Positions 5,402 through 45,615 of a DNA stretch of 45,950 nucleotides are shown in pieces. The DNA lies in assembly GCA_016930515.1 (NCBI GenBank), contig JAFGGO010000051.1, positions 1 through 45,950 of the forward strand. The letters run 5' to 3'. The notes under the pieces were generated by a model, which saw nothing but the letters and a program-made list of their open reading frames with translations, was not told where the DNA came from and searched no databases. Position 1 is the stretch's first letter, and each line of letters begins with the position of its first letter. The translations under genes and the position numbers were made by a program. This stretch comes from Promethearchaeota archaeon. Lineage in GTDB: Archaea; Asgardarchaeota; Lokiarchaeia; Sigyniarchaeales; SOKP01.

Positions 5402-5780
5402 ATAATCTTGAACTATAACATCTATCTGATGAAATTCAGAACATTTTATCAAGATTTTTAGGAATGACGATACTAAAAAGATGTATTAACTATTATAGCT
5501 CCTGAAATAGACAAAAAATATGTTTTTACTCAGTTACCATTATTGAGAAGATAATTAAAATAAATTTGAAAGAGTTGGGAAAAGTATAATATAATCTTAA
5601 TCGGAATCCTCTTTATAGTTATAGAAATGAAACTCGTAAATAATAACATGCATTATTTTTCACGAATTTTCATAATACGACAATATTACATATCTTCAAG
5701 TAATACGCCAGTTATCATTAAGATAATATTTATATACTCAAAAAAGAGTATTAATAGTAATAAAACACATCCGCTTTTAC

Positions 5781-27782: not shown

Positions 27783-30700
27783 CTATAAAGATTGATATGA
27801 TGAAGGTTTTCTAATCTTATAAATCACGATTGAAGTTAAACTAATAAAGAAAACTAGAAAGTACCAATTTCCGAAAGAAATTGTGTTTCCTCCCGTTTTT
27901 TGATTAACCGTTAAGAGAATTGAATCAGAAACGCTATTGCCAAAATCGTCGTAGATAGTAATCGTATAATTATAAGTTCCTACCGTTAATCCTTCAGGCA
28001 CGGTGTAAGTAATTGGTTCACCGCTTACCCATGATGTTGGTCCTGCCACGATTCCTGTTCCTTCAAGCTCGATGGTATAGTTACACGGGTGCTCGTCGGT
28101 TGCCGTCCACGAGATACTTTTTCCAGTATATCCAAGATTAATGGTTAAATCGCTTGGAATGATCGTTAATTCTGGATTGATTGATTCTGATATTGTTAAT
28201 GTAGCGGAATCTGTTATAAAATTACCAAAATCGTCCGTGAAATTAACGATATATATGTGTGTGCCCGTAGGAAGCCCCTCGGGTATATTGTAAATTATTG
28301 GATTTCCGCTCGTCCACGGAGATGGTCCTGCCACGATTCCTGTTCCTTCAAGTTCGATGGTGTAGTTACAAGGGTACTCGTCGGTTGCTGTCCACGAAAT
28401 GCTTTCTCCAGAGTAACTCACATCCAAGGAGAAATCGGGTTGAGTATTTGTAATGACGGGCTCATCTGATTCCTTGACAGTAAAGATAAAAGTATCTGTT
28501 GTATAGTGTCCATGATCGTCGGTTAAATTTAGTGTATATACATACACGCCTATAGGTAAACTACTCGTAATGTTATACTCAATGGGAACACCACTGCCCC
28601 ACGGGCTAGGTCCTGCAACAATTCCAGTTCCTTCACGTGAAATGGTGTAATTCAAGGGATTCGTATCGGTTGCCGTCCACGAAATGCTTGCATTGGTATA
28701 CCCCACATCAAGAGAGAGATCAGATGGTGAACTAGTTATCACTGGAAACACATTATATTCAACCAACATAGATACATCATCTATAATAGAATTACCGTAA
28801 AAATCCGTGATATTAATCTGATAGTTATAAATACCGATAGGAAGTCCATCTGGTATATCATATACGATTGGATTCGTAGCAAACCATGGGGTTGGGCCCT
28901 CAACCACACCTGTTCCTTCGAGAAAGATTGTATAATTTACCACATTTTCATTAGACACCGTCCAAGACAAGTTTATTCCCGTGTAATCCCAATTAACGCT
29001 GAAATCCGAAGGTTTGTCTAATAATATCGGATCATTCATGTCCCATCTCTGTCTTACCTGAAGAATGAATAATCCATTAGATCCTGCGAAAAAGGCATAA
29101 TCTCCATTAACAAGGACTCTATTTATACCCGTAGAAATTGAATGTTCGTACCATGTGATAGGATTTGTCGGATCAGAAATTTCAAATATAAAAAAATCTG
29201 AACCTCCTCCATCTGTCACATATGCAAAATCTCCACTGATGTAAACTGATTTTGCTAAGGGACCAAATCCCATTGATGCGTATGTAATTAATTCAGGATT
29301 CGAAAGATCGGTTATATTGATTATGGCTAAACCAGAATCGTCTGCTGTAACATAAGCGTAATCTCCATCAACATGTATGTCTCTTGCTCTTCCAGTTAAA
29401 TTTTCATACACGGGTATTCCTGGATTTTCAGGGTCAGATATATCTATTATGGCTAGACCCTCGTCTCCATCTGCGATAAAGGCACAATCTCCGCTAATAT
29501 AGATTGCCTGGGAGCTACCGTTTGTATATCTATAGCTAATTAACTCGGGATTTGTAGGATCTGAAATGTTCATGATGTTCAGTCCCAATGTACCAATAAT
29601 ATACGCTAAATCCCCTTCTATAAATATATCTCGGGCAGCTCCAAAATAAAAACTTTCCGTCGTGATGTATTGAGGGTTTGTAGGATCCGAGACATTTAAT
29701 GTGGATAAACTAGTACCACCATCTACAGTATAGGCTATATCTCCATCTACATATAAGTTTAGCACGCCCGTTGTGTTTTCGCTTCCAATGAATTTAGGCG
29801 CTTTGGGATTTGAGATATCAAATACTGCCAAACCTAATGAACCTAATCCGCCTGCGTAAGCAATATCACCATCAATAAAAATACTCGTTAATCTGCTTGT
29901 ATCTTGTACAGGATCTCCAGGAGTAATGTGTTCTGAAATATCGAGTACAGCCAATCCTGGATTATCTCCTAAACAAATATATGCATGATTTCCATTAATA
30001 TCAAACCCAAAAGGATAATTAAGTTCTTCTTCGTAAGCAATAATTACTGGGTTTAGGGGATTTGAGATATTAAACACTGCTAAACCCGAGCTTGCCGTTG
30101 TTAAATAAGCGTAATCCCCATCTAAACGCACATTGACTGCATTACTAGTAGTATTTCTATATATTGGTGATCTAGGATTAGTAGGATCTGTAATATTTAT
30201 TACTGCTAATCCAGAATGTACGGCTAGAAATGCATAATTTCCACTTACGCAAACATCCCACGCATTTGAAAATATATTCCTATATTCAGGGGTTCCTGGA
30301 TGTGTTGGATCAGAGATATCTATAATCGCTAATCCAGTAGTCACATCGGCGATATATGCGTAATTTCCACTGACATAAACACTTACCGTGGCTCCATCTG
30401 TATTAACTGTTTCAAGCGTTATGGGATCAGAGGGATTAGAAATATTTACAATTGTCAATCCACTAGAGCCTTCTGCGATATATGCGTAATTTCCTCTCAC
30501 GCATAATTCCTGTGCGTTACTGGTTGTAGGTTCATAAATAGGTGTTCCAGGATTCTTAGGATCTGTAATATCGATTACAGCTAACCCCGAGGTTCCTGCA
30601 GCAATATATGCGTAATTTCCACTTACAACAACCCCCGTATCGACACTAGCTCCAGTAATATATGCTGAAGTTGCAATATTCTCCGGTTTTGTTGGATCAG

Positions 30701-30926
30701 ATATGTCAACAACCTGTAGATATCCACCAACAACATACGCATAATTACCACTAACATCCACATCGTATGCATAAACTCCATCTTCATAATACACAAAAGA
30801 TGGTTTTGAAGAAATCGATTCAATCCATCCCGAATTATTATAACAACTAATTGAAGTAACTGATAAAGCCACTAAGATACAAGATATTAAAATTAGATTA
30901 GTTTTTTTTTTATTCATAAGATTCAC
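27783..30926 (-). CDS. Surface protein with LVIVD beta-propeller repeats, Ig-like repeats and a C-terminal anchor
   Basis: About 13 V(S/D)GxYAY...GLAII(D/N)I(S/T)DP repeats, four (I/L)SWT...NYTI...GTG(I/V)V.GP repeats, then ISFG + TM + KIRK. Confidence 0.88.
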   Translation of the reverse strand: MNLMNKKKTNLILISCILVALSVTSISCYNNSGWIESISSKPSFVYYEDGVYAYDVDVSGNYAYVVGGYLQVVDISDPTKPENIATSAYITGASVDTGVVVSGNYAYIAAGTSGLAVIDITDPKNPGTPIYEPTTSNAQELCVRGNYAYIAEGSSGLTIVNISNPSDPITLETVNTDGATVSVYVSGNYAYIADVTTGLAIIDISDPTHPGTPEYRNIFSNAWDVCVSGNYAFLAVHSGLAVINITDPTNPRSPIYRNTTSNAVNVRLDGDYAYLTTASSGLAVFNISNPLNPVIIAYEEELNYPFGFDINGNHAYICLGDNPGLAVLDISEHITPGDPVQDTSRLTSIFIDGDIAYAGGLGSLGLAVFDISNPKAPKFIGSENTTGVLNLYVDGDIAYTVDGGTSLSTLNVSDPTNPQYITTESFYFGAARDIFIEGDLAYIIGTLGLNIMNISDPTNPELISYRYTNGSSQAIYISGDCAFIADGDEGLAIIDISDPENPGIPVYENLTGRARDIHVDGDYAYVTADDSGLAIINITDLSNPELITYASMGFGPLAKSVYISGDFAYVTDGGGSDFFIFEISDPTNPITWYEHSISTGINRVLVNGDYAFFAGSNGLFILQVRQRWDMNDPILLDKPSDFSVNWDYTGINLSWTVSNENVVNYTIFLEGTGVVEGPTPWFATNPIVYDIPDGLPIGIYNYQINITDFYGNSIIDDVSMLVEYNVFPVITSSPSDLSLDVGYTNASISWTATDTNPLNYTISREGTGIVAGPSPWGSGVPIEYNITSSLPIGVYVYTLNLTDDHGHYTTDTFIFTVKESDEPVITNTQPDFSLDVSYSGESISWTATDEYPCNYTIELEGTGIVAGPSPWTSGNPIIYNIPEGLPTGTHIYIVNFTDDFGNFITDSATLTISESINPELTIIPSDLTINLGYTGKSISWTATDEHPCNYTIELEGTGIVAGPTSWVSGEPITYTVPEGLTVGTYNYTITIYDDFGNSVSDSILLTVNQKTGGNTISFGNWYFLVFFISLTSIVIYKIRKPSSYQSL

Positions 30927-31048
30927 TTTTATTCTTTATTTTGTTTTAATAGGTTTATTTTAGAGTAAAATCTGTCTACTCTTGTTTTTGATCTAAATTT
31001 TTTTATATTTTAGATAAAACGAATCTATGTGTTGATGAACATATAATA

Positions 31049-31128
31049 TTCCATTTATAGTCCTCAATCTAAAACATCCATAAAAGCTTGTAACTTTAAT
31101 GGAATATTTTCCTTTAATTGGAAAGTGA
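31049..31128. promoter_or_regulatory. Duplicated upstream region, copy 1 (contains AAGCTT-N9-ATGGAA)
   Basis: Colinear with 32109-32190 at offset 1060: tatagtcctca...tccat..aagcttgta...aatggaa. Confidence 0.65.
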
Positions 31129-31527
31129 TCATACATGTGAATTTATAAGATATTCCTCTCTCTCGCCTTTCATAACTATTTTCTGATGATTAAATTGGAT
31201 TAAATAAAATTAAAAAAGAGAATTGATATCAAATTGAGTCTATTTTTGATTCTCTGTAATTGATGGAGATTTAAAAATCTTTTATAAAAAGCCGACAAAA
31301 AGCGGCTTTATGCCATCTCAAATTAAGTCGGAATCATCAACAGAAATTTTAACCGATAAAAATGATTTTTTTTATCCCTTTTTTGTACAAGAATGCTATT
31401 ACTCCTCGTATGAGGGGATTATTCGTTTTTCGACAAAAATCAAGGAAGGATAGGTGCGATTTTCGTCGGAATCTCATTAAAGACTTTCAAGTTTCAGTTA
31501 AAAATAAAGAATTAAAAATACACTCAA

Positions 31528-32020
31528 TTAGAATTTATTTTTTTTTGCCAAGATAACTAAAATTATAGTTAAAATTCCTATTAATAAAAGCAGGTTGAAT
31601 CCGGGAATTAATGCAGATGCAACATAAGAGGGAAAAGGAAAGATCTAAAAATATGCTTCGCTTATATCGTAATTAGAACAGTTATACGCGTCTTCTATGC
31701 GTATTTGGTACGCATCTCCATAACTCGTATAATTTTCGTCTATTGTCCAGGAATAAGAACCGTTGTTTAGAGTATTCGGCGTAATAGTTCTATAATAGCT
31801 TCCCATATAATACAAGGAAATATTCACATAAGAAATAAATCCTGTCGAAGTCTAGACTATCTCATGCGTGGTACCTGCCTGTCAGGACCTCGAACTCGTG
31901 GGGCTCGTAATTATGATAGAATTAGGAAGTGGTTTGATTTTAAGACATTCTCCACTCGTATCTGGAAGGCGTCCCTGTAATATGAGTACTCCTCGTCGAG
32001 AGTCCAATTAAAAATACCCC
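31528..32020 (-). pseudogene. Decayed surface protein (Ser/Thr-rich Ig-like repeats plus an IPGF sorting signal)
   Basis: Reads SIIITSPTSSRS*QAGTTHEIV*TSTG...GSYSWTI...YQIRIED...SEAYF*IF...LIPGFNLLLLIGIL...AKKNKF*. Stops at 31882, 31852 and 31645. A fragment of a second repeat (NWTLDEEY...FQIRVE) lies upstream in another frame. Confidence 0.85.
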
Positions 32021-32108
32021 GATTTTTTTTTTCTTGTTTTTCAAACCTAAAACCTTGGATATTAATATAAATACTAATATACTTTTACAAATATGTGATT
32101 ATTCTTTA

Positions 32109-32307
32109 TTTCAATTATAGTCCTCATTTCAATAGTTCCATGGAAGCTTGTATTAATAATGGAAAAACTTTTTTTTTGCTATGGAGAGTGCTAAAATGAA
32201 CAAAAAAGAGGAGAATTTTTTCTAAAAATATATATTTAAAATCAATGTTAAGTTCCATAATAATAAAAGCTTTCACAAATATATTGGAACCATAATATTA
32301 ATGGAAC
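32109..32307. promoter_or_regulatory. Duplicated upstream region, copy 2, plus an inverted motif copy in front of the wHTH regulator
   Basis: AAGCTT-N9-ATGGAA at 32144-32164 and TTCCAT-N8-AAGCTT at 32253-32272. Further TGGAAC half-sites at about 32285 and 32302. Confidence 0.55.
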
Positions 32308-32368
32308 TATATATTAAAAGGATAATATAATATTAGATGTAAGTGAAAAAGAGCAAAAACAATTTACT

Positions 32369-34306
32369 ATGAAAAATACGAGTTATCCTCCCGAAAATAT
32401 ATGCAATCCCACCAAATTCGATAAGCGAGATTATGATCACATCATTCTTTGGATGCTGTATAATAATGATTCGTGTCAATGGTCTGATTTCATTCAAGAT
32501 CCAATAGGAATTCCAATTGGTACATTATCTAGACACTTGACTTTGTTAAAACAGAGTGGTTTTGTTAATAACTTCGAGAGGGGAAAATATCAGATTACAA
32601 CTGATGGGAAAAAAGAATTTCACAAATTGTCCAATCCAAACAAGAAAGGACGGCAAGTTAATTATCCACCAAAAATAATATTGAATACGGGAAGAAATTA
32701 CTCGGATTGGATACTTTGGATGGTATATAACAATAATTTCTGTAAAAGAACTGACTTTCTTGAAGAGCCATTGTCTATTAACCATGCATCCTTATCAAAG
32801 AACTTGAATCAATTAATGAATAATGGATTGATTATTAAAACGGATGGAAAATACGAAATTACAGTTATGGGGAAATCAGCGTATTCGAAGTTGCTGCAAC
32901 AATATGATTTGGATCGTCAAACGATTTTAGAAGCGGAAATGAAAACAATTGAATTTCTTACAAACAAAACAAATAATTTTTTTACTAAATACGAGATCAA
33001 TAATTTTGATATTCAATTCAAATTTTTAATTATCCTCCTTAAACTAGACTATGAAAAAGTTAAATCATTACTTAAAAACGAGGAGGAATATTTCAAGATC
33101 GTGCTCTTTTTTGCGATAAATCATCCAGATCATTATCCCAATTATATGTCTCCTAAAGAATTCTCCATAAAATATCAGGTCAAAAGAATAACTCTTGATT
33201 ATTATGTCGAAGAAATTTTCGAAGGAATGATATATCCTGTACGGTTCTTTAAATTAATTGCTCCCTCTGGCGGGGAATTCTACTTTCACTCGGGGGAAAA
33301 AATCGAACGAATGCTTCAAGTACTTACGGAGCACGAAATTAACAAGTTCGCTTATATGAATGTCTTTTATCAAAAATCACAATATCTTTCCAACAAAAAC
33401 TTAAATTTGATTCTAGATCGTATATCAGAGAATTTATGCGCGTCAATATTAAGTCCTGAACTCAAATCATCCCTTAAAGGGCTTTTACCCGAATATATTA
33501 ATTTTTTGGCTTATAAAATAGAGTTTAAAAAGGAACTTAAAGACAAATACGATAAGTTAGAAGGAATGATATGGCAAAAAATGGTTAAATTCTTTGATTT
33601 AGAGGCTTCCGAGGGATTAAACACGCAATTTAAAGAAAACATCGAGGATATTAACGAGAAGATAGCATCAACGCGTCGCGATATCGATTTATATTATTCT
33701 AAATTAGAGATATTGATCTATTTTAATCAATATAAAGATGTATTGAACCTCTTAGATGAAATGTTAGTTATTTTTCCCGAGAAAGAAGTGGATTTATTGA
33801 TGAAAAAAGCATCTATTTTTAAAAAAAGAAGAAATTTAAGCGCAGGAATGGACATAATCGATAACCTAATTGAAAAATACAAGGACAATAGCGAACTTCT
33901 CAGTTATAAGGCATTTTGGTACCAATATATGAACAAAAAAGACGACGCCATAAAGGTGATTCAAACGCTTATCAAAAAGTATCCAGAAAAGGGAATTTAT
34001 TTTGATAACTATGGTGAGATATTGATGTATTTTGAAGATTACGAGCAAGCAGCTGATAAATTTCTCAAAGCGCTTATAAAGGGAGAAAAAGAATGGTACA
34101 CATATCAAACATACATAAAACTTGGAGTATGTTATAAAACACTCGGAAACTTCGAATTAGCCATAAAAAATCTCAAAAGGGGAAAAGAACTCTTAACCGA
34201 AGTAAACATCGATCCCGACGATAAGCAAAAATGGACAGTAATTGCAGATCTATTTATCGCAGAAACAAGCGATCCAAAATTTATACAATTTCAAACTCGT
34301 AGGTGA
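32369..34306 (+). CDS. Tandem winged-HTH plus TPR protein (putative transcription regulator)
   Basis: Two repeats (R.Y...ILWM.YNN..C...DF...P..I...LS..L..L...GKY.IT..GK) and C-terminal TPRs (YGEILM, YIKLGVCY). Confidence 0.8.
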   Translation: MKNTSYPPENICNPTKFDKRDYDHIILWMLYNNDSCQWSDFIQDPIGIPIGTLSRHLTLLKQSGFVNNFERGKYQITTDGKKEFHKLSNPNKKGRQVNYPPKIILNTGRNYSDWILWMVYNNNFCKRTDFLEEPLSINHASLSKNLNQLMNNGLIIKTDGKYEITVMGKSAYSKLLQQYDLDRQTILEAEMKTIEFLTNKTNNFFTKYEINNFDIQFKFLIILLKLDYEKVKSLLKNEEEYFKIVLFFAINHPDHYPNYMSPKEFSIKYQVKRITLDYYVEEIFEGMIYPVRFFKLIAPSGGEFYFHSGEKIERMLQVLTEHEINKFAYMNVFYQKSQYLSNKNLNLILDRISENLCASILSPELKSSLKGLLPEYINFLAYKIEFKKELKDKYDKLEGMIWQKMVKFFDLEASEGLNTQFKENIEDINEKIASTRRDIDLYYSKLEILIYFNQYKDVLNLLDEMLVIFPEKEVDLLMKKASIFKKRRNLSAGMDIIDNLIEKYKDNSELLSYKAFWYQYMNKKDDAIKVIQTLIKKYPEKGIYFDNYGEILMYFEDYEQAADKFLKALIKGEKEWYTYQTYIKLGVCYKTLGNFELAIKNLKRGKELLTEVNIDPDDKQKWTVIADLFIAETSDPKFIQFQTRR

Positions 34307-34678
34307 GTACAGTTGAGGGGTTCCTAAAGGATCTCTTACTATCGCATACAACACAAAAGAAAAACTCACTATTCTCATGTGCGTTCCCTCCATTATTCTC
34401 GCTTTCTGATATCACATATTTTTCTAACCATCCACATCACGACTATAGTCTGTTAAAACAAGATACAATCAGAAAGAATAGCTTAATACAGTTAGACGCT
34501 TCATAAAATGATTTTAGGTCGTGCTTGAAGTAAATTTTAAATTTTTATGATTTTAATTAGCTTTACTCAATTTTACATTTCTGGAAAAGATTTTATGTCA
34601 TTATCGGGACTCATCGTTCTTTGTAAAATAAGAAATGTTAATTAATATCAAAGATTAGAAAAAAAATAGGTAATTAAA

Positions 34679-35254
34679 ATGAAAGCTCTAATTTTAAACG
34701 GTTGCAAATCTGATCACGACGAATCTGCTTTGGTTCTTGATTTAATTCTTAAAGAACTCGAGATTTTAAAGTGGGACATAACATCGATTTCTCTTGAAGA
34801 TAAAGACATTAATTTTTGCGTTGGTTGTTATGGATGCCTGGTTCAAACACCTGGTAAATGTCTAATTAAAGACGACGAAGAAATTATCATGAAACACTAT
34901 GTTCAAAGCGATCTACTAATTTATCTCAGCCCCATAATATTTGGAGGATATTCGTCAATTCTAAAAAAGGCTATTGATCGAAAAATCTCCATTCTTTTAA
35001 CCAAAATGGTGAAAAGAAACGGAGAAACTCGTCATCCAAGGAGATACAAAAAAAAACAATATCTATTAGGTATAGGTCTTTTAGATACGCACGATTCAAA
35101 GAAAGAAGACATATTTAAATCTTTAGTTGCTCGGAACGCTCTAAACATGTGGGCTGTTTTTCAGCGAGCTATCATACATTCAAAAGGTGAAAATCTGTTA
35201 GAATTTCGTGATAATTTAAATAAAGCGTTAAGGGAGGTAGAAACGATACAATGA
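34679..35254 (+). CDS. Flavodoxin / iron-sulfur flavoprotein family (paralogue of 12356-12952)
   Basis: MKALILNG, CVGCYGC..TPGKC, SPIIFGGYS..LKKAIDR, GETRH. Confidence 0.85.
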   Translation: MKALILNGCKSDHDESALVLDLILKELEILKWDITSISLEDKDINFCVGCYGCLVQTPGKCLIKDDEEIIMKHYVQSDLLIYLSPIIFGGYSSILKKAIDRKISILLTKMVKRNGETRHPRRYKKKQYLLGIGLLDTHDSKKEDIFKSLVARNALNMWAVFQRAIIHSKGENLLEFRDNLNKALREVETIQ

Positions 35255-35928
35255 ATAAAATCAATAATGTTTTATCTTTAGTTGGAAGCCCTAAGGGCTC
35301 AAGGAGCACGTCCGATTCTCTTAGTTCATATTTAATTTCCTCCTTGGAACAATTGGGCGTGAAAGTTGAAAAAGAATTTATCTACAACCTCGTCAATAAA
35401 GAAGAGGGTCAGAAAAAATTACTTGATAGCGTGGAAGAAGCTGATGTGATCGTTTTAGCTTTTCCACTTTACGTCGATTGTTTACCTGCTGGAGTTATAA
35501 AAACATTAGAGCTCATTGCAGATCTCAGAAAATCTAAAAAAGAATGGAAAAAGCAAGGATTTGCAGTCATCGTCAACTGTGGTTTTGCAGAAGCTCACCA
35601 TAATAACACTGCCGTAGCTATTTGCGAGAATTTTGCAGAAGAAACGGGTTTTGACTGGAAAGGCGCATTATCGCTTGGAATGGGGGGTTTTTTTAACGGT
35701 AGATCCTTGGAAGAATGCGGAAGCATCGTGAAAAAATTAAAAAAAGGCTTGGATCTCGCTGCGCGAGCTTTAGCCAAGGGAGAACTAATATCAGACGAAA
35801 TCATCGATCTCGTTGGAAAAAAATTCATGCCTATTTCTATTTATAAAAAAGTAGCGAGTATAAGTTTTAAAAAACAAGCGAAGAATAATGGAGTAAAAAA
35901 AAGAATCAAAGACCAACCTTATCTTTAA
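35251..35928 (+). CDS. NAD(P)H-dependent FMN reductase-like protein (paralogue of 11532-12359)
   Basis: LVGSPKG..STS, FPLYVDCLPA, NCGF.E. ATGA overlap with the upstream gene. Confidence 0.85.
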   Translation: MNKINNVLSLVGSPKGSRSTSDSLSSYLISSLEQLGVKVEKEFIYNLVNKEEGQKKLLDSVEEADVIVLAFPLYVDCLPAGVIKTLELIADLRKSKKEWKKQGFAVIVNCGFAEAHHNNTAVAICENFAEETGFDWKGALSLGMGGFFNGRSLEECGSIVKKLKKGLDLAARALAKGELISDEIIDLVGKKFMPISIYKKVASISFKKQAKNNGVKKRIKDQPYL

Positions 35929-36308
35929 TTTTTGACGATTAAGTATTTGAAGTTGGGATCATGCAATTTTTCACGCACGGGACAATTAAAATTAATTAAT
36001 TGAAATAATTCAATCGTTTCAGAAATAATCTTTTCTCACATATCGATTTGAATGGCTTTTCTCATTGCAATAATAATATAGTCCCTTAGAGATAAAAGTA
36101 TAAATTAAAAGTTCGTTTTCTAATAATAAAATAATATAAAAACTGGTTTTCGCTGAGAATATAAATTTCGTTATTTTATCTTATCGCTTTCCTTGCCTTA
36201 GGTGTTTTTGGAAGTTGATTACACCCCTTGAAAAAATGGGCGACTTACAAAAGGTAAGCGATTCATTTTAAATACTCAAATTATATTGATTAAATTGGAG
36301 TGAATAAA

Positions 36309-36545
36309 ATGGTGGAATATAAATTAATCCCAGTTAAAAGGCCATTATCACATAAAATCATCAATGAAAAAGGGCCATCCGAAAAATTATTTAAAACATC
36401 AGCTAATTTGGGAATGATTTCGAAAGAGGAACTCGAAACGATACTAAAAATAAAAAACGGAATTCAACTGGCTGAATCAGACGAAAAGACCCAAATCGTC
36501 TTAAAAAAGCTATTAAAAAAGAGAATCGTCGAAAAAATAACATGA
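36309..36545 (+). CDS. Small hypothetical protein, possibly winged-helix
   Basis: ATG at 36309. ISKEELETILKI..G...LKKLLKKRIVE pattern. Confidence 0.55.
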   Translation: MVEYKLIPVKRPLSHKIINEKGPSEKLFKTSANLGMISKEELETILKIKNGIQLAESDEKTQIVLKKLLKKRIVEKIT

Positions 36546-36953
36546 TTTTTTCTATAACAAATTTAAATTAATATAACATTAGCTAAGGGATGAACCGATA
36601 TCCCCCTTATATTAATTCCACTCGTTTACTTGCTTTACGACTTCGCCCAATTTACACAAATTTCTTATTAAATATCAAGGCGTTATTTTGATTAGTATGC
36701 AGAATTATCCTCATTGTAAATGGAGACTTTAGTTTAGTAGAAAATAGAAATATGATAAATCGATCATAAAATCTTAGCGGTTTTGAAGTTTTTATAATAA
36801 CCCAACAGAGTATAAAAATATCTCTGAAGAATCCCTAGGAAGAGAATTTCGTGGGGATCACTCGAGGGCGAAAATTTCTTACAAATAGAACCGGCTAGGT
36901 TTGATATAAATTTCATAACACTATTATTATAATTGAAGGAGCACGATCTAACA

Positions 36954-37967
36954 ATGAAAGAGAAATTCTTGGTCATTTCCTATTTTGACATGAAAATAGG
37001 ACCTAACACCCTGTACACTCGATCCGACATTAGTACTATTTACGGATTTCCCGATTTATCGAAAATCTTGGATTTTAGCAACAAGGACGGCACTTTTTTG
37101 TTTTCCTTTCGCAAGTTCCAAACAATCAACACCGTTTTTAACATGCGCTCTGACATTGCCCGGGGGGGAACTGACTTGCTCATGATTTCTTGCATCGTCC
37201 GAGCGTCGTATTTTAAGAACGAGCTCACCGACATATTTAAATACTTGGAATCGAAAAAGGTTTACTTGGATAAGTTCGCCTCCGAGCTAAAAGCACTTCC
37301 CAATTTTAACTCGATCTTGTACAAATACAAACAAAATCCGTCAGTTGCGCAATTCACGCGGTATTGCAAGGAAGAGAATGTGAATTTTTTTTCGGTCTAC
37401 GATCGATACCACGATCTCATCTTTCCCGAATCCGAGATCAAGCTCATAACGCAAGACATCAACCTTAAAAAAAAGATCTTCCTCATAGGTCCAAAAGGTT
37501 CCGGCAAGGACACCTATTTGCGAAACATTGAAACCCTCCAATTTTTTAGCGAAAATAATTTAGACATTCCCACGCGTATCATGGGGATAATGCTTGACAA
37601 CATCGTCGCCTCTGACGCAATCGATTTTTTTAAAGGCAAGACGAGACTCGATAAGGCTCAAGCCGTGATATTCATTGTTAAAGACACAGACGGGAAAACT
37701 TCCATCGTTGTCAAGTCGTTTATAGAGAAATTCATGTCTTCCTATTCTGGCCAGCTCTTCGGCAAAATTCCTCTCCTGATCATTAACAACGAGGTTGAAG
37801 GCATGGGCAAGGCGCCCTTGCGGGAGGAAGAAATCAAAGAGATTTTCAGGAAACAAGAATTCAATGAGCAAGAAATTCCCTTTAAATACTATTCACTAAA
37901 TGTGATCAAAGAAGATCCACTATTATTAGAGCCATTAAAATGGATCATCAAGGAGATTTTTACTTAG
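36954..37967 (+). CDS. Longin/uDENN-like domain fused to a degenerate small-GTPase domain
   Basis: ISYFDMKIGP...SDIARGG..LLMISC is homologous to the N-terminus of 7470-10307. P-loop GPKGSGKD, no DxxG, G4 reads NNE. SD-like AAGGAG precedes ATG 36954. Confidence 0.75.
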   Translation: MKEKFLVISYFDMKIGPNTLYTRSDISTIYGFPDLSKILDFSNKDGTFLFSFRKFQTINTVFNMRSDIARGGTDLLMISCIVRASYFKNELTDIFKYLESKKVYLDKFASELKALPNFNSILYKYKQNPSVAQFTRYCKEENVNFFSVYDRYHDLIFPESEIKLITQDINLKKKIFLIGPKGSGKDTYLRNIETLQFFSENNLDIPTRIMGIMLDNIVASDAIDFFKGKTRLDKAQAVIFIVKDTDGKTSIVVKSFIEKFMSSYSGQLFGKIPLLIINNEVEGMGKAPLREEEIKEIFRKQEFNEQEIPFKYYSLNVIKEDPLLLEPLKWIIKEIFT

Positions 37968-38021
37968 AGCGGTAAGTCAATATTATTTCCAGTAAAAACA
38001 AGCGAATGCGCTTGCGAGTAG

Positions 38022-38684
38022 AAAAGGCTAAGAGTAATCGTTAATCCCCACTTTCACGCCATTGATTTTGGCTTCTTAACACACTCGAAGGAATTTCAAA
38101 AAAAACATCCCGGTTGGGTGTACGTAAACCACGGCAGGAGAAAATCGCTCAATCAAACCCTATTTTGCTGCCTGAGCCACTGCGCTCCGTGGAGAAAGCC
38201 AGACGGAAAGCCCTATCCCGCGCACGCCTACTTCGGGTGGCTTTCCTCCCGCAAGTGCCGCGTTTCGGACGTGAAAACCTTGTGGAGAACGGCAAGGTGC
38301 GCTCACTGCAAGAAGGAACTCAGGGAAGTCAGAGAGGGCGCGAACGTCACTGGCGATAAACCGCGCTTTCCGTCAAGCTTGCCCGTGAAAGTCCGCGCCA
38401 AGACGCTCGGCGTTCCAACGGAAGGACGGTCGCTTCGAGCCATAAAAAAGGACCTGCAAGCGCGCGTGGTCAACAACGAACATTTCTCGTGCGAGCTGGA
38501 CGAAAAAACGCTAAAACTTGGAGAGGCCCTTCGATTCAAGGTGGAAACGATCGCGTACGAGATCTGCGGCGTCGAACGACTGAGGACGAGCGTGAACCGC
38601 CTCAAGGAGCAAGGGGGGTGGAAAAGAATAAACGAGATCGTGAGGGCAAAAATCGCCCTAAAATCCACTGGCAAATACGGCTAG
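38022..38684 (+). mobile_element. Truncated rolling-circle (HUH) replication initiator, pseudogene
   Basis: The frame is open from 38022: NPHFHAIDFG (HUH motif II), GWVYVNHGRRKSLNQTLFCCLSH (motif III-like, Tyr replaced by Cys), AYFGWLS, CAHC. GC-rich (37/60 G+C in 38221-38280). No start codon before the HUH motif and no motif I. Confidence 0.7.
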
Positions 38685-38810
38685 CCCTAACTATCGTATA
38701 TCCATGCAATAAAACACGCAGAAATCGAACTCACTCGTCCCGCTTTCTCACGTCGTTTCCTTTTCGAAACGTCGACCGAGCGATAACTCTCGCATACTAG
38801 TACGGGATAC
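38648..38810 (+). repeat. Direct repeat copy 1 (Rep 3' end plus about 125 bp downstream)
   Basis: Shares aaaaat.gccct, aatacgg.tag, taactatcgtatat, tcgaaacgtcga, gcgataactctcg.atacta.tac.ggatac with 39584-39746. Confidence 0.9.
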
Positions 38811-38818
38811 TATCCTCA

Positions 38819-39487
38819 TTAATAAGAACGATCTGCATGACCACAATCTAGTACCCTATCTTTAGACATCTTAAATCCCAAACCATGCTCAATTTCCCAT
38901 TCGCAGTCGAATTCATAACCCACATGTGCTATGTTTTCTTCAAATTTATTGTGGATATAAATATTTCTCAATGTAATTAGCTTTTCTAATTGATCAATAG
39001 TATTAATATCAGGCAAATCTTCGTACCTTTTTTGTTGTATTCTATATTCAACTAACAGGAAATCCAACATGTTTTTTTTAATAATTTCTGAATTTTCAAT
39101 TATATAATTATAAGCATTAATGTGCCCTTGTTTTATTTCTTCTCCGAAAATCTTTAATGTAGCTCTTCCCGTTTTAAACGGGTCTTCAGGATTCGAAGAA
39201 TCAAATCTCCAGACATCTAATTGAATCAACCCTTCCCATCCAAAAGGAGATAATACCATATCTGGAATGCTGTTTTTCTCTTTTATCGTTGATTTGATAA
39301 ATGTCAATCCTTTTTGGTGATATTCTTCTTTTATTTCAAGCTCTTCTATTTCATCCTCGAGCTCTTCAATTCTATGGAATGCCTCGCAGTTTTTACACTC
39401 AATCTTCTTGCATTTTTCTAATGTATCGCATTTTTTTACAAGCGATGCTCTTTCTTTTTCAAGCTTTTTTATTTCTTCTTTATACAT
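38819..39487 (-). CDS. Coiled-coil/Cys-cluster N-terminus fused to a DUF6985-like domain
   Basis: C-x5-C-x4-C-x2-C N-terminus. C-terminal GYEFDCEWEIEHGLGF. Confidence 0.6.
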   Translation of the reverse strand: MYKEEIKKLEKERASLVKKCDTLEKCKKIECKNCEAFHRIEELEDEIEELEIKEEYHQKGLTFIKSTIKEKNSIPDMVLSPFGWEGLIQLDVWRFDSSNPEDPFKTGRATLKIFGEEIKQGHINAYNYIIENSEIIKKNMLDFLLVEYRIQQKRYEDLPDINTIDQLEKLITLRNIYIHNKFEENIAHVGYEFDCEWEIEHGLGFKMSKDRVLDCGHADRSY

Positions 39488-39583
39488 GTTCTTTTCACCA
39501 TTCTTTACATCACAATTTAAGATTAAACTTGAGTAATGCTATTATATATTTTTGGATTTAACACCAATTTTACTCTAGCGAGA

Positions 39584-39746
39584 AAAAATTGCCCTCAAGG
39601 CATCTGGGGAATACGGTTAGTTTCATAACTATCGTATATTTGCATTACTAAAAACAGAACTCGAATTTAATCTTCTCGTTTTCTAACATCCTTTCCTTGT
39701 CGAAACGTCGATCGCGCGATAACTCTCGTATACTAATACAGGATAC
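39584..39746 (+). repeat. Direct repeat copy 2 (diverged Rep 3' end plus downstream region)
   Basis: Encodes KIALKASGEYG* versus KIALKSTGKYG* in copy 1. Followed by the hairpin TATCGT-AAT-ACGATA at 39760-39774. Confidence 0.9.
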
Positions 39747-39780
39747 GAAGGCTGATGGATATCGTAATACGATAAGGAGT

Positions 39781-42700
39781 TTAATTCTTTATTTTAGAGT
39801 TTTCGATAAAAACAGTGAACTGATTCTCTTGTACCATTTTAAACCTATTCCAGATTTCCTCGACTTCTTTTAACTCAATTTTTGAAATCTGAGGATATAT
39901 AAAATCTGAAAAGTCCAAATCTCTTAAATTTTGGATAATAACACCCATCTTTCTATCTTTTAGATTTGTGTTAATTTCAATTAGGTGTTGAACTATTTTT
40001 TTTAATACAAGAGTCCTAGGCGATATTTTAAACGCTTGAAATAGACAATTCAGTGTTGATAAGGATCCGAATGTGAGATAAAAGGGGAGGTCTTCGAGAA
40101 ATTTTCCAACATTATAATCCATATAATCCTTTAAAATGACATTAATTGCGTAAGTTATCCAATTAGCATAATTCTTTATAAATTGCTCGCAAAAAATAAC
40201 CGCATCTGCAATGTTGTCTTGATCGTTTGTGAAATAACTAGTGTAAAGATCTTTGTACGGTTCGTCCTTTAACCACGAAAGAATAATCAATGAAAAGTTA
40301 CTCCTCAAGTAATTTTTCGAATTTGACGATAATTTAATTTCGTCAGCTACAGAAAAAAGGGTGAAAACATTCAATAACTCATTATTTAACGATTCTGAGT
40401 ATTCTTCAGACTCTATTAATTTTTTCGAAATCAGCTCCTTTTGCATTAATTTTTGAAGTTGCAGCGTAATACTATTCATCGTGGTTGGGAGGAGTCCAAC
40501 ATTATTGCATAAATATCCAAATTTAGTAGGTTTATAAGGACTATGTCTTTCAACAACAGGATTTTCTAAGACCTCTAGCGTTGAAAGAGAATTAGTTATT
40601 AAATTTTTGACATTATTAAAGAGCGAATAAAACTTGTGTTTTTCTTTTCGAAACCCAAAAAAGGTGTTATTGAGGAATTTATTTATAGAATAACCATCAA
40701 AACTTCGTTGAACTAATGCAGAAAGTATTTCCCTGTTAAGGGAAAGCATGTCTAAAGTAGCTTTTCTTTGTTTATTTTCTTCGTAACTATTCTTTGGGTG
40801 CATCCTGCTAACTTTTTCGCTTTCTAATATCGTTTCAAAGAAACTTTGTACATTTTCAATAGACTCCGTATTGCTATAAATGTATTCTTCTGCCTTCTCG
40901 TGCTCAAAATTATCTGTTTCTATGAGAATGATAAATCCTTCTGTAGATTCAAGAGCTCTTCCCGCTCTTCCAGCAATGTTCCTGAATAACATTTTTGACA
41001 GATATTCATATCTCATCCACAACGAAGGGATTATAATGCTAGAAACAGGCGTGTTCATACCTTCTGCTAAAGTTGTTGTAGCAGAGACAATCTTTAATCT
41101 ATTGGTTTTGATCAATTTTTCTATCAAATCTCTTATATTAGGAGGCAATCCTGCGTGATGATATGCTATCCCTTTTTCAACATAATTCGCGAGCTTTACA
41201 TCGTTGCCCATCGTAAATCTTATCAAATTTGCTGCGTTTTTATTTATACTTTTATTGTTTCTAAATAATTCATAGAGTTCTTGAGCGTATTCTTCTGCTT
41301 TAGGTCGAGATATAGAAAATATCATACTTAAACCATAATTTCTTTGAAATTGTCTCGCTAGATAGATCGCTTTTTCTTTTGTTCTGAATTTTTTAAGATG
41401 AGTCATATTTGGTTTAAATCCCTTTAGATCTCCGTAAAAAACTAGAAAACCTTCTTTAGTCAATAGAGAATGAACTGCGCGAGTAGGGCTCCAGCTCGAT
41501 TTTTGAAACCTACCTTTTTCAACATTCAACCAATTGGCGATTTCGTCTGGATTTGGAGTAACAGCAGACAACATCACGATTTTTTCAGGTTTATTTTTGC
41601 GTTTTTTAAGATTAGTAATTAGAATTTCCAAGTTTAAACCACGAATATTACTTCCTAAATTATGAGCTTCATCAATGATAATAAGTTCAAGATTTTCCAA
41701 ATTTTTATTATTCTGGTTGAGGAGGATTTCGAATTTTTCAAGAGTAAATATTAGGACACTAGATGTTTCCAAAATAAACTCATCTAATTCAGGCATTGAG
41801 ATTCCCCCAACAAGAATTCCAACATTAAATCCTAAAGGATTAAGAGATTCAGCGAGATTATCGTATACTTGAGAAGCCAAGGCTCTGGAAGGGACGATAT
41901 ATATTATCTTGGAACGAATGTTACTCGCTAACGAAGCAATAATACATATTTCAGCAATTAAAGACTTTCCTGCGCTTGTAGGAGCAGAAACAACGAAATC
42001 ATTTTTTTCTAGAATTCCAGAATTTATTGCTTCAATTTGGGAAGGCCAAAGTTCAATAATTCCGCGTTTTATTAATTGTTTTTTGTACTTCTTCCATAGG
42101 ATTGAATCATGAGGCAAATTATAAACGATTCTTTTAAATTCTCTTTTAAAGCTAACTTCTAGTAATTCGGTGATGAAGAATAAATTTACATCTTGGTTAA
42201 TATCGAAATTTTTCTTTGCTTTCTTTAATATGTCCAGAGCCTCTTCTAAATATGTAAATCGCCCCTCTTTCCAAAATATTTCTAGTCGTTCGAACGATGT
42301 GATCATTTGAAATAATCCCAATATCGTCCTAAATTTGCTAGGATCTTTATTTACTAAATCTTCGAAACTAGACCTTATATTAGAACTTAATCTCAGATTT
42401 TTTGTTAAATCTTTAATATCTCTAGAAATATATGCAATAATCACATCCGTGTAAATAAATTGCAAATTATTCCATGTTTCTAATGGTTCAATTTCATTCC
42501 TTCTGAATTCCTTGACTTTTTCTATGATCACTTTCGCGTTTGCTATTTTATCTGCTAGATCATAACATATACTTGTTAAAAGATATAAATCAGCGCTTTT
42601 TTCAAAATTTCTTTTGTATTTTTCAGAATACCTGAGCAACAGTTCTAAATATCGTGCAACTTCTTCAAAATGGGTTTCTTGTAGTATTTGGCTTTTTGAA

Positions 42701-42918
42701 AATTGAAAAAGTGTGGCTTGGATGAATATATATGCACCAATTATCAATTTCTCTTCATTTAAGGTTCCAGAATCATTGCTTGAATTAATAAATGCAAAGA
42801 TGTCTTTTATTCCAAATTGATCATATAGATTTTTACTTGCTAATTCTATGAAATCTTTTCTTAAATCAATTGATTTTAATAATTCTATAATTTTATTTAT
42901 TTCAACATCATCAGACAT
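39781..42918 (-). CDS. Ski2-like DEAH helicase, Hachiman HamB-like
   Basis: LWPSQ, APTSAGKS, DEAH, LSAV, GIAYHHAGL, TTTLAEGMN, NIAGRAGR, with a long helical N-terminus. ATG 42918 overlaps the upstream stop codon. Confidence 0.85.
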   Translation of the reverse strand: MSDDVEINKIIELLKSIDLRKDFIELASKNLYDQFGIKDIFAFINSSNDSGTLNEEKLIIGAYIFIQATLFQFSKSQILQETHFEEVARYLELLLRYSEKYKRNFEKSADLYLLTSICYDLADKIANAKVIIEKVKEFRRNEIEPLETWNNLQFIYTDVIIAYISRDIKDLTKNLRLSSNIRSSFEDLVNKDPSKFRTILGLFQMITSFERLEIFWKEGRFTYLEEALDILKKAKKNFDINQDVNLFFITELLEVSFKREFKRIVYNLPHDSILWKKYKKQLIKRGIIELWPSQIEAINSGILEKNDFVVSAPTSAGKSLIAEICIIASLASNIRSKIIYIVPSRALASQVYDNLAESLNPLGFNVGILVGGISMPELDEFILETSSVLIFTLEKFEILLNQNNKNLENLELIIIDEAHNLGSNIRGLNLEILITNLKKRKNKPEKIVMLSAVTPNPDEIANWLNVEKGRFQKSSWSPTRAVHSLLTKEGFLVFYGDLKGFKPNMTHLKKFRTKEKAIYLARQFQRNYGLSMIFSISRPKAEEYAQELYELFRNNKSINKNAANLIRFTMGNDVKLANYVEKGIAYHHAGLPPNIRDLIEKLIKTNRLKIVSATTTLAEGMNTPVSSIIIPSLWMRYEYLSKMLFRNIAGRAGRALESTEGFIILIETDNFEHEKAEEYIYSNTESIENVQSFFETILESEKVSRMHPKNSYEENKQRKATLDMLSLNREILSALVQRSFDGYSINKFLNNTFFGFRKEKHKFYSLFNNVKNLITNSLSTLEVLENPVVERHSPYKPTKFGYLCNNVGLLPTTMNSITLQLQKLMQKELISKKLIESEEYSESLNNELLNVFTLFSVADEIKLSSNSKNYLRSNFSLIILSWLKDEPYKDLYTSYFTNDQDNIADAVIFCEQFIKNYANWITYAINVILKDYMDYNVGKFLEDLPFYLTFGSLSTLNCLFQAFKISPRTLVLKKIVQHLIEINTNLKDRKMGVIIQNLRDLDFSDFIYPQISKIELKEVEEIWNRFKMVQENQFTVFIENSKIKN

Positions 42919-43543
42919 CTTTAGCAACTCTTTCATATATTCTTTCTGAGCTTGAAATGATATTATTATATTCTACATTTCTTCTAAATGCAGAACCAAA
43001 ATCGTTTAACTCTGTTTCAAAACGCTTTCCAATATTTCTAGTTACATTTGGAGATATAAAAAATCCAATTATGTTCATTTTATCGTATTTTCCATTATAA
43101 ATTTCTTTTAAAACGCTTAACACGGGAAATAACTTTATTTTATTCTCATAGTGTTTTTGATACCAAAATGCTTTCTGAACAAAATATTTTATTCCCTCAT
43201 TTTTTATTTCAGAAACTAGTTCTGAGATTTGAGTGGACATACTTTTTTTAGTTTGGCTTGTCTTAGCTTCTAAGATCCATAAATTTTTACATTGATCAAA
43301 GCATAACGCATCATAATTAGGCAAGTCTTGATCTAATGCAAGCGGAATTGCCCAGGGTAATATTGGAATATCCAAATCAAAATACTTTTCTGATAAAAAT
43401 GTAGACATTGCATGTCCTACTCTAGAAAATACTGTTTTTTCAAGCTTAGGCAATACAGATATGGTTAATCCCACTTCTCTACATTCCTGAAGTAAATCCT
43501 CATCTTCTGGAGTTTCTGCTTTTAGTGACATATTCTTAATCAT
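42911..43543 (-). CDS. PD-(D/E)xK nuclease, Hachiman HamA (DUF1837)-like
   Basis: YDAL...LWILEAK motif, translationally coupled to the helicase. The frame is open about 33 codons further upstream without a standard start. Confidence 0.65.
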   Translation of the reverse strand: MIKNMSLKAETPEDEDLLQECREVGLTISVLPKLEKTVFSRVGHAMSTFLSEKYFDLDIPILPWAIPLALDQDLPNYDALCFDQCKNLWILEAKTSQTKKSMSTQISELVSEIKNEGIKYFVQKAFWYQKHYENKIKLFPVLSVLKEIYNGKYDKMNIIGFFISPNVTRNIGKRFETELNDFGSAFRRNVEYNNIISSSERIYERVAKDV

Positions 43544-44013
43544 ATATTCAACAAGTTCATCTTCTAATTTGTTAATATCACTTATTTCAATTAATCCCCC
43601 TTTAGGATTTCTGATATCAACAATGTCACCTCTGCAAGGAATTTAAAACACCTATAGAATTTTCATATTATTTTTTTTATGATTTCTACAAAATAGAAAT
43701 ATCGTAGATTTCTTGAACCGTAAAAGTCATAAACTCAACATTTCTTGATTTTTTTCCAGATTTTTAAAAGAAAAATCAGTTGAATTCATATTCAACCTGC
43801 CCAAATGTGTCAATATAAAAAACAATACACCCAATCATAATAAGCTTTTGCATATTTCTGGCAAATTTCTTTATCTAGGGTTTTAATTATTTTTTGAAAA
43901 TCTCTTTCCTTTTTAGTATTTATGTTATTGTTATTCCTAATTTTTATAAGAAAGTGTTACTTTTTACTTAGACAAGGATTTGAATAAATACACTTTTTTC
44001 TGAATAATTGAAT

Positions 44014-45615
44014 ATGCAAATCAATTACCCCATATATGGACACTGTCCTAAGTGTAATGAACCTTTAGGATAGATAGAAGGAGAATCGGAAAATATAATC
44101 TGCTATAAATGCAACAGTTTCAAGATAATAGAAAAAAAAATAGCTCTCCTGCAATACAAAGATAAACTAAAAAAAATTCGAGACGATTTTAGAAAGGGCA
44201 TTAAAAATAGTCATATCGATCGATATTTTGCTAATTATTTAACTTTAAGCGAAGCGATTTGTTGCAGTAAGGACGAGGAATATTTAACATTAAGCTCTAC
44301 AGAATTTGAGTCTGGAGGATTAATTGATTTTAAAAATTTTGTTATAGGATCTATAGGAATAAAGTGGATTTTAGAAGATCTAAATTTTATCTATAGCACT
44401 AGTAAAAATTATGATAATATTGTTTTTGGATTACCACAAGAATGGATAATTAACTTCCAAAAATATATTTATTTGGATAATAACCTCGGGTATATTGTTA
44501 AGGATAATATGGATAATGAGAGATTCTATTATTTCGAAAAATTAGAATTTTATTTTAATTCTTTGAATCAGTTTGGTATGTTTGACCCAACAAAATTGGA
44601 TAAAAAAGAAAATATTGAGATTATAAAGGAATTATTGAAAAAAGAAAAAAATTCTGAATATGCTAAACAAATGGCATTTATTCATATTCCTCTTTTTTTT
44701 GTTTGTATGGCTTATCAACAATATCCAAATGCTGAAGATAGGATTTTTTCATTTGAAGATATATTATATGATCCAATAGTAATAGATTATTTAGGTTATA
44801 TATATAATCAATATAAAGATAAAAGAGCACGAAGTCCGAAAGAATGGAGTCATGATAATCCTTGTTTTCTCTACATTGATTTTAATAATCTTAAAAAAGA
44901 TATACCTAAAATTGAATGGAATCAAATGTTAAAAACACATATAATTTCGTCTCAATATAATTCTATGAGTTTTCCATTATTGATAGAATACAAAGGAAAA
45001 ATACTGATTGCACCAACGAGATTAAAAATAGCTAGAGAAATGATATACGAAAGACTTCTTCATAACTTTATTCATAGTCATTTATCCATTGTTTCTGAGA
45101 ATGACTTTCAAAAAAAAATATTAGATATTTTAGAAAAGAATAATTGTATGGTGAGAGATCCTTTAACAAATAAATATTGGATATATATTAGCGATAAAAA
45201 AAAAGCTACATTCGAATTTGATATACTTGCCGTGTTTAATAACTATATTCTTGTTATTGAATGTAAGGCGTTTCATCCAACTGCTTTTTACCATTTACTT
45301 CCTACAGTTGAGGGAAGGAGAAAAAAAGTCCAATATTATAGCGAACAGTTCAAAAAAAAAATTCATCCTTGGTTTTGTGAAAACTTAAAGAAATCTAGAT
45401 TGGGCCATATAAATATTGTATGTCGATCAAGAGATATTGGTGCTACAAAAACAAAACAATTTACTCTAAATCTTGAAGATCGTATTAAATATATCGACCA
45501 TAAACAAATTATTGGACTATTTATAACACAACATAAAGAGTATTTCAAGGGGTATTCAAATATATTTCAAATCCACTATAAAGATATTGAAGATTTTCTT
45601 GACCATTTAAAGTGA
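44014..45615 (+). pseudogene. Zn-ribbon plus PD-(D/E)xK (NERD-like) nuclease interrupted by one in-frame TAG
   Basis: ATG 44014 gives MQINYPIYGHCPKCNEPLG*IEGESENIICYKC... with TAG at 44071-44073. Otherwise open into ORF 44473..45615, which carries FEFDILA...VIECK. Confidence 0.8.

Follow-up and report, generated by a model that had tools for sequence, protein, structure and literature searches.

RepA of the haloarchaeal virus SNJ1 (Simuloviridae; AY048850.2 gp11-12) carries, in its sequence record, the annotation of a rolling-circle replication initiation protein. In PMC6563490 the members of the SNJ1 RepA family are described as histidine-hydrophobic-histidine (HUH) initiators, remotely related or homologous to IS91 transposases (citing J Gen Virol 2018;99:416), with homologues on euryarchaeal plasmids and in a thaumarchaeal integrated element. 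The rolling-circle endonucleases of wyrdviruses, viruses of Asgard archaea, have likewise been assigned to the HUH superfamily, and contig JABUBK010000290 is named for the circular wyrdviruses WyrdV4/V5 (bioRxiv 10.1101/2021.07.29.453957). Here we analyse a window of 45,950 nucleotides (nt; positions 1 to 45,950 of contig JAFGGO010000051.1) from a Promethearchaeota assembly of 4.0 Mb in 190 contigs (GCA_016930515.1), in which a degenerate rolling-circle initiator gene (rep) and a repeat of its 3' end lie between a longin-GTPase-like gene and a Hachiman-type defence pair. What lies between them is probably what is left of two neighbouring copies of a small mobile module of Asgard archaea that encodes an SNJ1-RepA-like Rep. 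As its rep belongs to a known archaeal virus and plasmid family, the locus itself is ordinary, and SNJ1-RepA-like HUH initiators were already known from Asgard wyrdviruses; what is added here is a dead member of the family and the occurrence of the family in small chromosomal modules.

A preliminary description of the window had noted a cryptic P-H-F-H motif in frame with the open reading frame (ORF) 38118-38684 (188 aa) and, further on, T-L-F-C-C-L-S-H with TGC at 38166 in place of a catalytic tyrosine codon, and had read these as the remnant of an HUH rolling-circle Rep; these observations are borne out. The frame is open back to 38022, with the P-H-F-H codons at 38046-38057 and the H-F-H of the HUH motif at 38049-38057. 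The TGC (Cys) codon at 38166-38168 falls in the alignment column of Y232, a tyrosine invariant across 83 aligned relatives, and the near-invariant Gly200 is replaced by Asp (G200D). In DNA and protein alignments, homology to the intact gene extends left of 38022 to ~37995, across an in-frame TAG (38019-38021) where intact copies carry Gln; the frame is 58-60% identical to residues 175-403 of two intact copies encoded in the same genome on contigs C66 and C5. Because homology starts only at ~37995 and a TAG interrupts it, the window copy is a 5'-truncated pseudogene: ~174 N-terminal codons are gone, including the entire N-terminal Cys cluster, and with them the zinc-binding part that characterizes SNJ1 RepA-like initiators. 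The family has the catalytic Tyr expected of the HUH superfamily on the helix after the HUH strand (Y232); the Cys codon at that position makes the window copy a dead derivative and not an active HUH member. In a maximum-likelihood tree the three copies of this genome form a 100/100 clade, with an end branch of 0.40 for the remnant and of 0.15 and 0.18 for the intact copies. Judged from its sequence, the window rep is thus dead, given the truncation, the TAG, the Tyr-to-Cys change and the long branch. The sharply higher guanine-plus-cytosine (GC) content reported earlier is also present (0.53-0.57 across 38100-38700, against ~0.30 in the flanks and a genome mean of 0.35).

Protein relatives of the window ORF are labelled Promethearchaeota (Asgard), and of 1.84 billion representative proteins searched exhaustively with HMMER, 335 proved to be relatives. 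In the 83-sequence alignment, residues C78, C83, H193, H195 and Y232 are invariant, and C54, C63, C86, H121, H163, G200, T229, L234 and H236 nearly so; the Cys cluster C54, C63, C78, C83 and C86 is present in both intact copies. H193 and H195 (83/83) form the His-hydrophobic-His motif, and in an AlphaFold2 model built from this alignment (predicted local distance difference test score 91.9, predicted template modelling score 0.88) these residues lie on a central beta-strand (186-200), with Y232 on the following helix (226-235). In our reading, the intact Rep begins with a zinc domain formed by the Cys cluster, continues with an HUH nuclease core that has one catalytic Tyr, and ends in a Zn-ribbon and a helical part.

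A profile search had been proposed as a check on the Rep assignment, and its outcome depends on the kind of search. Neither the remnant nor the intact Rep had a significant match in Pfam, PHROGs, NCBIfam or PADLOC; the family profile, run against PDB sequences, picked up only chance matches (coronavirus PLpro, E 0.3), tblastn against phage and plasmid collections gave nothing real, and scans of IMG/VR with three queries nothing. Yet profile-profile comparison of the family with SNJ1 RepA (hhalign; L084:4144-5589) gave a probability of 98.8% and E 1.3e-16 over ~209-210 columns, and it is this match that decisively links the family to known rolling-circle Reps. At the level of structure, Foldseek against PDB returned nothing at E<=1e-3. 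In an exhaustive VIA-align search most top rows were HUH Rep nuclease domains (Z 4.2-5.6), among them those of vientovirus, SIRV1 ORF119, geminivirus, RepB of pMV158, Helitron and parvovirus NS1. BFVD gave 11 matches at E<=1e-3, mostly unnamed, and its three named rows (E 6e-4 to 2e-3) are microvirus replication initiators.

The Asgard family and SNJ1 RepA share a Zn-binding Cys cluster, motif I (H-x-h-h-S-P-P), a strand with F/Y-H-x-W/R, the motifs P-H-h-H-h-I-G and h-h-Y-x-L-S/T-H-C ('VVYALSHCAI' aligning with 'TLFYCLSHCAL'), and a long non-coding region 3' of the gene. They differ in that pairwise identity is ~21%, with no similarity at the level of BLAST to any phage or plasmid record; in that RepA has 481 aa whereas the Asgard proteins have ~400 aa and their own C-terminal Zn-ribbon and helical part; and in that the copies studied here are chromosomal, the one in the window being dead. 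Family members are also encoded on JABUBK010000290 and on JABUBK010000395, a circular contig (95-nt terminal repeat) that bioRxiv 10.1101/2021.07.29.453957 leaves unnamed. The WyrdV4/V5 Reps belong to the same family (tblastn E 4e-6 and 3e-10) and the same tree, and share Asgard hosts and circular genomes; they form a separate deep clade at ~20-21% identity, however, and are encoded by virus genomes of 10-12 kb. Rep-Arvir of betapleolipoviruses (DUF7845/PF25227) is likewise an archaeal rolling-circle initiator with a conserved downstream origin element, and has a TBP-like, Rep_trans-type fold (PMC13107129). An identity with Rep-Arvir was rejected, the fold being unrelated and DUF7845 having no match in the remnant, the intact copies or the 83 relatives.

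Within Asgard archaea the family profile matched 10 of 400 species genomes, all from one taxonomic family, and the genome studied here has the most copies (three). Besides wyrdviruses, then, SNJ1-RepA-like initiators are found on small chromosomal modules of one Asgard family. More distant members (24-27% identity) are encoded on contigs of 1734 (L054), 1898 (L049) and 2337 nt (L046) with terminal direct repeats of 123-127 nt; each of these circles carries essentially one gene, that of the Rep family, and all three are candidate minimal rolling-circle replicons of unassigned host.

The two intact paralogues (C66:9005-10216 and C5:917-2128; 403 aa each) define the module of which the window would hold the remains. 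Module homology spans C5 765-2990 and C66 8139-10290, i.e. ~2.2 kb, and comprises a small, divergently transcribed partner gene, the 403-aa Rep and a non-coding tail of ~130-165 bp. The partner gene is an ORFan of 217-274 aa, split by a frame break in C66, for which no relatives were found among 5.8 billion clustered proteins and no family or PDB match was obtained. It lies at C5 2166-2990 and C66 8139-8810; inspection by eye shows a D...E-V-K pattern that resembles PD-(D/E)xK nucleases. Homology between the modules ends on the left at the partner stop codon, and the right end is defined by ..GGATACTA or ..GTAATACGATA; among the copies of this genome, only three in number, no common flank, left-end sequence or target site is shared. 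All lie in linear contigs at chromosome-like depth (contig depth 12.1, chromosome 9.2).

Turning to the 3' end, the last ~12 rep codons and ~130 bp beyond them (38648-38810) recur at 39584-39746, offset by 936 bp, with 77% identity by BLAST and 80% over aligned columns. This is the diverged repeat around an AT-rich gene that the preliminary description had reported, and the enclosed gene encodes a DUF6985 protein. The second rep fragment can be aligned with 38648-38684 and with the ends of the intact proteins, ..LALKATGEYG in C66 and ..ELKLAGEYG in C5. A search for further copies had been suggested, with a repeat unique to this locus as a refuting outcome; the repeat is not unique, since it also follows both intact paralogues. 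Tails A and B, those of the two window copies, share 80% identity, and either is 70-72% identical to that of C5; with indels of 1, 2 and 9 nt the tail cannot derive from coding sequence, which also disposes of the decayed antisense gene that had been considered. Rfam gave no match for the tail. Its first motif, TAACTATCGTATAT, lies 3-25 nt past the rep stop in the four copies of this genome (as TGAC... in C66), and the C5 tail carries the identical 14-mer; a second motif, TAACTCTCGTATAC, is a direct copy ~94 nt after the first. The small TCGA-N4-TCGA hairpin appears in C5 as TCAA-N4-TTGA, a paired change that retains the stem, the conserved tail ends in ..GGATAC(T/G)A, and the half-palindrome GTAATACGATA of tail B is common to the C5 tail. 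The repeat had been called palindrome-rich, and copy A does contain the palindromes listed (TTTCGAAA, GTCGAC, GCGA-N6-TCGC and TACTAGTA); copy B has none of them, retaining of the hairpins and palindromes of copy A only the small TCGA-N4-TCGA, and they are unconserved.

Beyond this genome, 259 kb of related loci, drawn from other genomes and from metagenomes, contain 11 exact copies of the core ACTWTCGTATA, all 11 on the rep strand and 10 of them downstream of rep, and the Reps of the 10 further Asgard loci with the motif are only 37-52% identical to the C66 protein. It lies 16-33 nt past the rep stop in L023, L029 and L030, and 239 nt past it in L031; in L026, L032, L034, L039 and L041 it directly follows one conserved accessory gene that comes after rep, and in L033 it follows two genes. 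When one mismatch was allowed, 13 occurrences were on the same strand downstream, 2 on the opposite strand and 3 upstream. Across both strands of the whole 4-Mb genome, there are only three unrelated exact occurrences (C28, C64 and C106), which have no flanking similarity and are taken as chance. Conservation and orientation downstream of such distant Reps fit a cis-acting site read by Rep, and ACTWTCGTATA is a good candidate for the nick site or origin. The proposal that the downstream repeat is an origin therefore gains in substance: it is a conserved non-coding element tied to rep whose core is kept in distant relatives. Separately, SNJ1 itself has AACTATCCAATAT at 5762-5774 (AY048850.2), 175 nt downstream of repA, where the intergenic sequence is otherwise rich in GC; 11 of its 13 positions agree with the Asgard motif AACTATCGTATAT, which may be chance.

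The order of features in the window is truncated rep, tail A, 7 nt, the DUF6985 gene (minus strand), a ~96-bp AT-rich stretch that is the upstream region of that gene, 12 rep codons, tail B and the Hachiman genes (Table 1). The DUF6985 protein has an N-terminal coiled coil with a CxxC pair and a C-terminal DUF6985 domain, and its gene is AT-rich like the host. This gene holds the orientation and position of the divergent partner gene of intact modules, and its stop codon lies 7 nt from the end of tail A, just as intact modules start at the partner stop codon. With DUF6985 in the partner position and the boundary at its stop codon, two adjacent modules are the simplest model. We propose that copy 1 would have lost its partner gene and the first ~174 rep codons, later acquiring the stop codon and the Tyr-to-Cys change and keeping tail A, while in copy 2 the divergent DUF6985 gene, 12 codons at the end of rep and tail B would have survived an internal deletion that removed the remainder of rep. 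Neither copy is able to replicate or move by itself. In an intact element, Rep would bind the tail and nick one strand at or next to the ACTWTCGTATA core; the Tyr would become covalently linked to the 5' end, the 3'-OH would prime rolling-circle synthesis, and a second cleavage and joining at the regenerated site would close the circle. The mode of integration is inferred, and so are the successive insertions proposed in the preliminary description, which give the best reading of the tandem layout.

Table 1. Coordinates of the module remains and flanking genes in the window.
Feature	Coordinates	Strand	Description
Longin-GTPase-like gene	36933-37967		Upstream neighbour; rep homology begins just past its stop
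rep pseudogene	37995..38684	+	C-terminal 229 codons of a 403-aa SNJ1-RepA-like HUH rolling-circle initiator
Tail A	38685..38812	+	Non-coding element at the 3' end of the module; aligns with those of C5 and C66 and with tail B
Tail A, motif 1	38688-38701		TAACTATCGTATAT
Tail A, mini-hairpin	38764-38775		TCGA-N4-TCGA
Tail A, motif 2	38784-38797		TAACTCTCGCATAC
Tail A, end of homology	38812		GGGATACTA
DUF6985 gene, 222 aa	38819..39487	-	PF22481, E 3.9e-21 (Pfam)
Second rep fragment	39584..39620	+	Last ~12 codons (..EKIALKASGEYG), stop TAG 39618-39620
Tail B	39621..39774	+	80% identical to tail A, 72% to the C5 tail; repeat families D1, D3, D4
Tail B, motif 1	39626-39639		TAACTATCGTATAT
Tail B, mini-hairpin	39700-39711		TCGA-N4-TCGA
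Tail B, motif 2	39720-39733		TAACTCTCGTATAC
Tail B, palindrome	39760-39774		TATCGTAATACGATA
Hachiman-type defence pair	39781..43543	-	Flank of the element remains
HamB, 1051 aa	39781-42936	-	PADLOC E 1e-82; Pfam DEAD and Helicase_C
HamB upstream partner, 210 aa	42911-43543	-	Weak REase-like matches only

Several observations weigh against the reading as two dead modules. Nicking, replication and mobility of the module are predictions made from sequence. Among solved structures, HUH domains are matched weakly (Z < 6) and alongside equal-scoring S6/RRM-like folds. Between the remnant and the intact copies, the ratio of non-synonymous to synonymous substitution rates (dN/dS) is 0.14-0.24, not above the level seen between the intact copies themselves (0.17). 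With dS saturated, these values indicate that most divergence is older than the inactivation, whose date cannot be set from them. The stretch 39488-39583 has no homology to the rep 5' or upstream regions, and it is therefore position only that points to an internal deletion of the second rep. The tails fold no better than shuffled sequences (z -0.03 to -1.1), and the exact motif is absent near about half of the Asgard-clade reps (e.g. L024, L036-L038 and L085-L097), so that other subclades probably use variants; the wyrdvirus contigs, too, differ in lacking the exact core. Finally, the preliminary description had suggested looking for empty sites and circular forms, and no circular, deletion or empty-site joint was seen in the contigs of the source sample. 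Only the source sample contains the stretch, and the single apparent joint there proved to be the C5 paralogue.

As to how the second tail and the DUF6985 gene came to lie where they do, a single insertion followed by tandem duplication of its 3' end, with the DUF6985 gene arriving later between the copies, would account for tails A and B being mutually closest (80%, versus 70-72% to C5). We favour two insertions over such an old local duplication, which we regard as unlikely: the tail identities are compatible with both, the A-B divergence of 20% being near that from an independent copy, but duplication requires an extra insertion event, and DUF6985 lies exactly in the position and orientation of the partner gene, with its stop codon 7 nt from tail A. 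The preliminary description had instead seen HUH-driven gene capture by analogy with IS91/ISCR, and in this form the 936-bp DUF6985 unit between the motif copies would have been taken up by rolling-circle read-through, or would be a Rep-less cassette that the C5 and C66 Reps could excise and copy in trans from one nick motif to the next. In the pC194, M13 and IS91 systems a Rep protein is able to initiate at one copy of the origin and stop at another; here, the gene lies between two direct and identical copies of TAACTATCGTATAT, a 14-mer that recurs in the C5 tail, and intact Reps of the family are encoded in the same genome. The DUF6985 gene, however, is single-copy in the genome, is absent from 42 loci of other genomes and metagenomes (L023-L064) and has no PADLOC match; no second cassette of this build was found, and no circular joint was seen in the only run containing the DNA. 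Copy B has its left junction inside rep and not at the motif, and tails that are 20% diverged were not made by a recent copying event. Together with the lack of a Y2_Tnp match, these points leave the IS91/ISCR-type capture model unsupported, and capture or a cassette of either kind appears quite improbable. We give little credence, too, to a bolder combination, in which the tail with its ACTWTCGTATA core would be the double-strand origin of unrecognised ~2-kb minimal Asgard replicons consisting of Rep and origin, and the DUF6985 unit would be a Rep-less cassette still open to excision and copying in trans by the C5 and C66 Reps; were it true, helper and satellite would occur together naturally in this genome, and Asgard genetics would have a minimal replicon ready to use.

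A different question is whether the intact modules are integrated plasmids or virus replication modules, or IS91-like rolling-circle transposons, in which case the window would hold two dead transposons. The family resembles IS91/ISCR elements (Y2_Tnp PF04986 and Zn_Tnp_IS91 PF14319) in having an N-terminal zinc domain before the HUH/Tyr core, a cis site 3' of the gene and several chromosomal copies per genome. Three copies lie at unrelated, chromosomal-looking sites at a contig depth similar to that of the chromosome, no integrase was seen within the 2.2-kb module, 4 of the 83 members and two wyrdvirus Reps have weak Zn_Tnp_IS91 matches, and SNJ1 RepA is reported to be homologous to IS91 transposases (J Gen Virol 2018, cited in PMC6563490). 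Transposons of this kind nevertheless seem doubtful to us, given that the Zn_Tnp_IS91 matches are all below the cut-off, that the family has only one invariant Tyr, and that Y2_Tnp, an identity we rejected on this ground, has no match in the whole genome at E<=10. Moreover, the three copies, a small number on which to judge element ends, share no left end and no common target site at their right ends, and reveal no recognisable ori/ter end pair or target tetranucleotide; relatives occur on small circles and virus genomes; and the C66 copy lies within a larger set of mobile-element genes, including a HerA/FtsK ATPase, that is syntenic with L038. A last possibility is that ORF 38118-38684 is a domesticated Rep, expressed, lacking the catalytic Tyr and binding the origin motif of incoming related plasmids or wyrdviruses, and so acting within this defence island in a dominant-negative way. 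Over 220 codons the frame stays open without a frameshift, dN/dS is low, and the site adjoins Hachiman; but high GC makes chance stops rare, the low dN/dS under saturated dS mostly reflects history before the truncation, and the long end branch with G200D and the loss of Y232 (Y232C) suggest relaxed constraint. No promoter or expression evidence was found, no RNA dataset being listed with the stretch, and we consider domestication very improbable.

Reading the region as the debris of two modules, we see its value chiefly in what it points to. It is an example of mobile-element wrecks accumulating beside defence systems, and its short, oriented and conserved motif 3' of replication genes offers a concrete candidate for a nick site or origin. 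Few candidate replicons associated with Asgard archaea are as small as the 2.2-kb modules of C5 and C66. To our knowledge no genetic tools exist yet for these archaea, which would give a functional pair of Rep and origin practical value, and the ACTWTCGTATA motif and the intact C5 and C66 modules are worth following as candidate minimal Asgard replicons.

Neighbourhoods of the Rep relatives are rich in defence-like and mobile-element genes, which suggests that Rep copies tend toward defence or mobile islands. Ahead of the C66 copy come a 797-aa ORF and the gene of a HerA/FtsK-type ATPase with a membrane anchor (PF01935, PF01580). The same gene order (797-aa ORF, ATPase, Rep) is found on C66 2739-10290 (L065) and on the metagenome locus L038 3423-9353, two contigs otherwise unrelated, a synteny from which the small module appears to be at times part of a larger element, and in six loci an ATPase of this family is encoded no more than a few kb upstream of rep. 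A larger Asgard mobile element may thus exist in which a rolling-circle Rep is paired with an FtsK-like DNA translocase. Inspection of neighbours by eye also revealed a reverse-transcriptase-like ORF (IDLKDFFPTI), an AAA/OLD-like ATPase and a DNA methyltransferase (SPPYP), at L038 9759-10427 and 1612-2604 and L032 7108-8205. A same-genus genome holds a 36-codon Rep fragment (G003:C126 12-119) at a contig end, 78% identical over residues 213-248 and with two stops, which is a further decayed copy.

On the left flank of the module remains, the longin-GTPase-like gene has orthologues in five related genomes (60-70% identity), and none of the other ten window genes tested (27783-45615) was matched in those genomes. 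Without flanking synteny in relatives an empty site cannot be defined, and this part of the window is a variable region; the interval between the longin-GTPase gene and Hachiman is poorly syntenic and island-like. No tRNA genes lie near any rep copy, and a promoter and terminator scan was at chance level. On the other side, a HamB helicase and an adjacent small partner make up the Hachiman-type pair, and beyond it a 380-aa ORF (44473-45615) gave weak PADLOC matches to CARF_PDDEXK models (E 6e-4).

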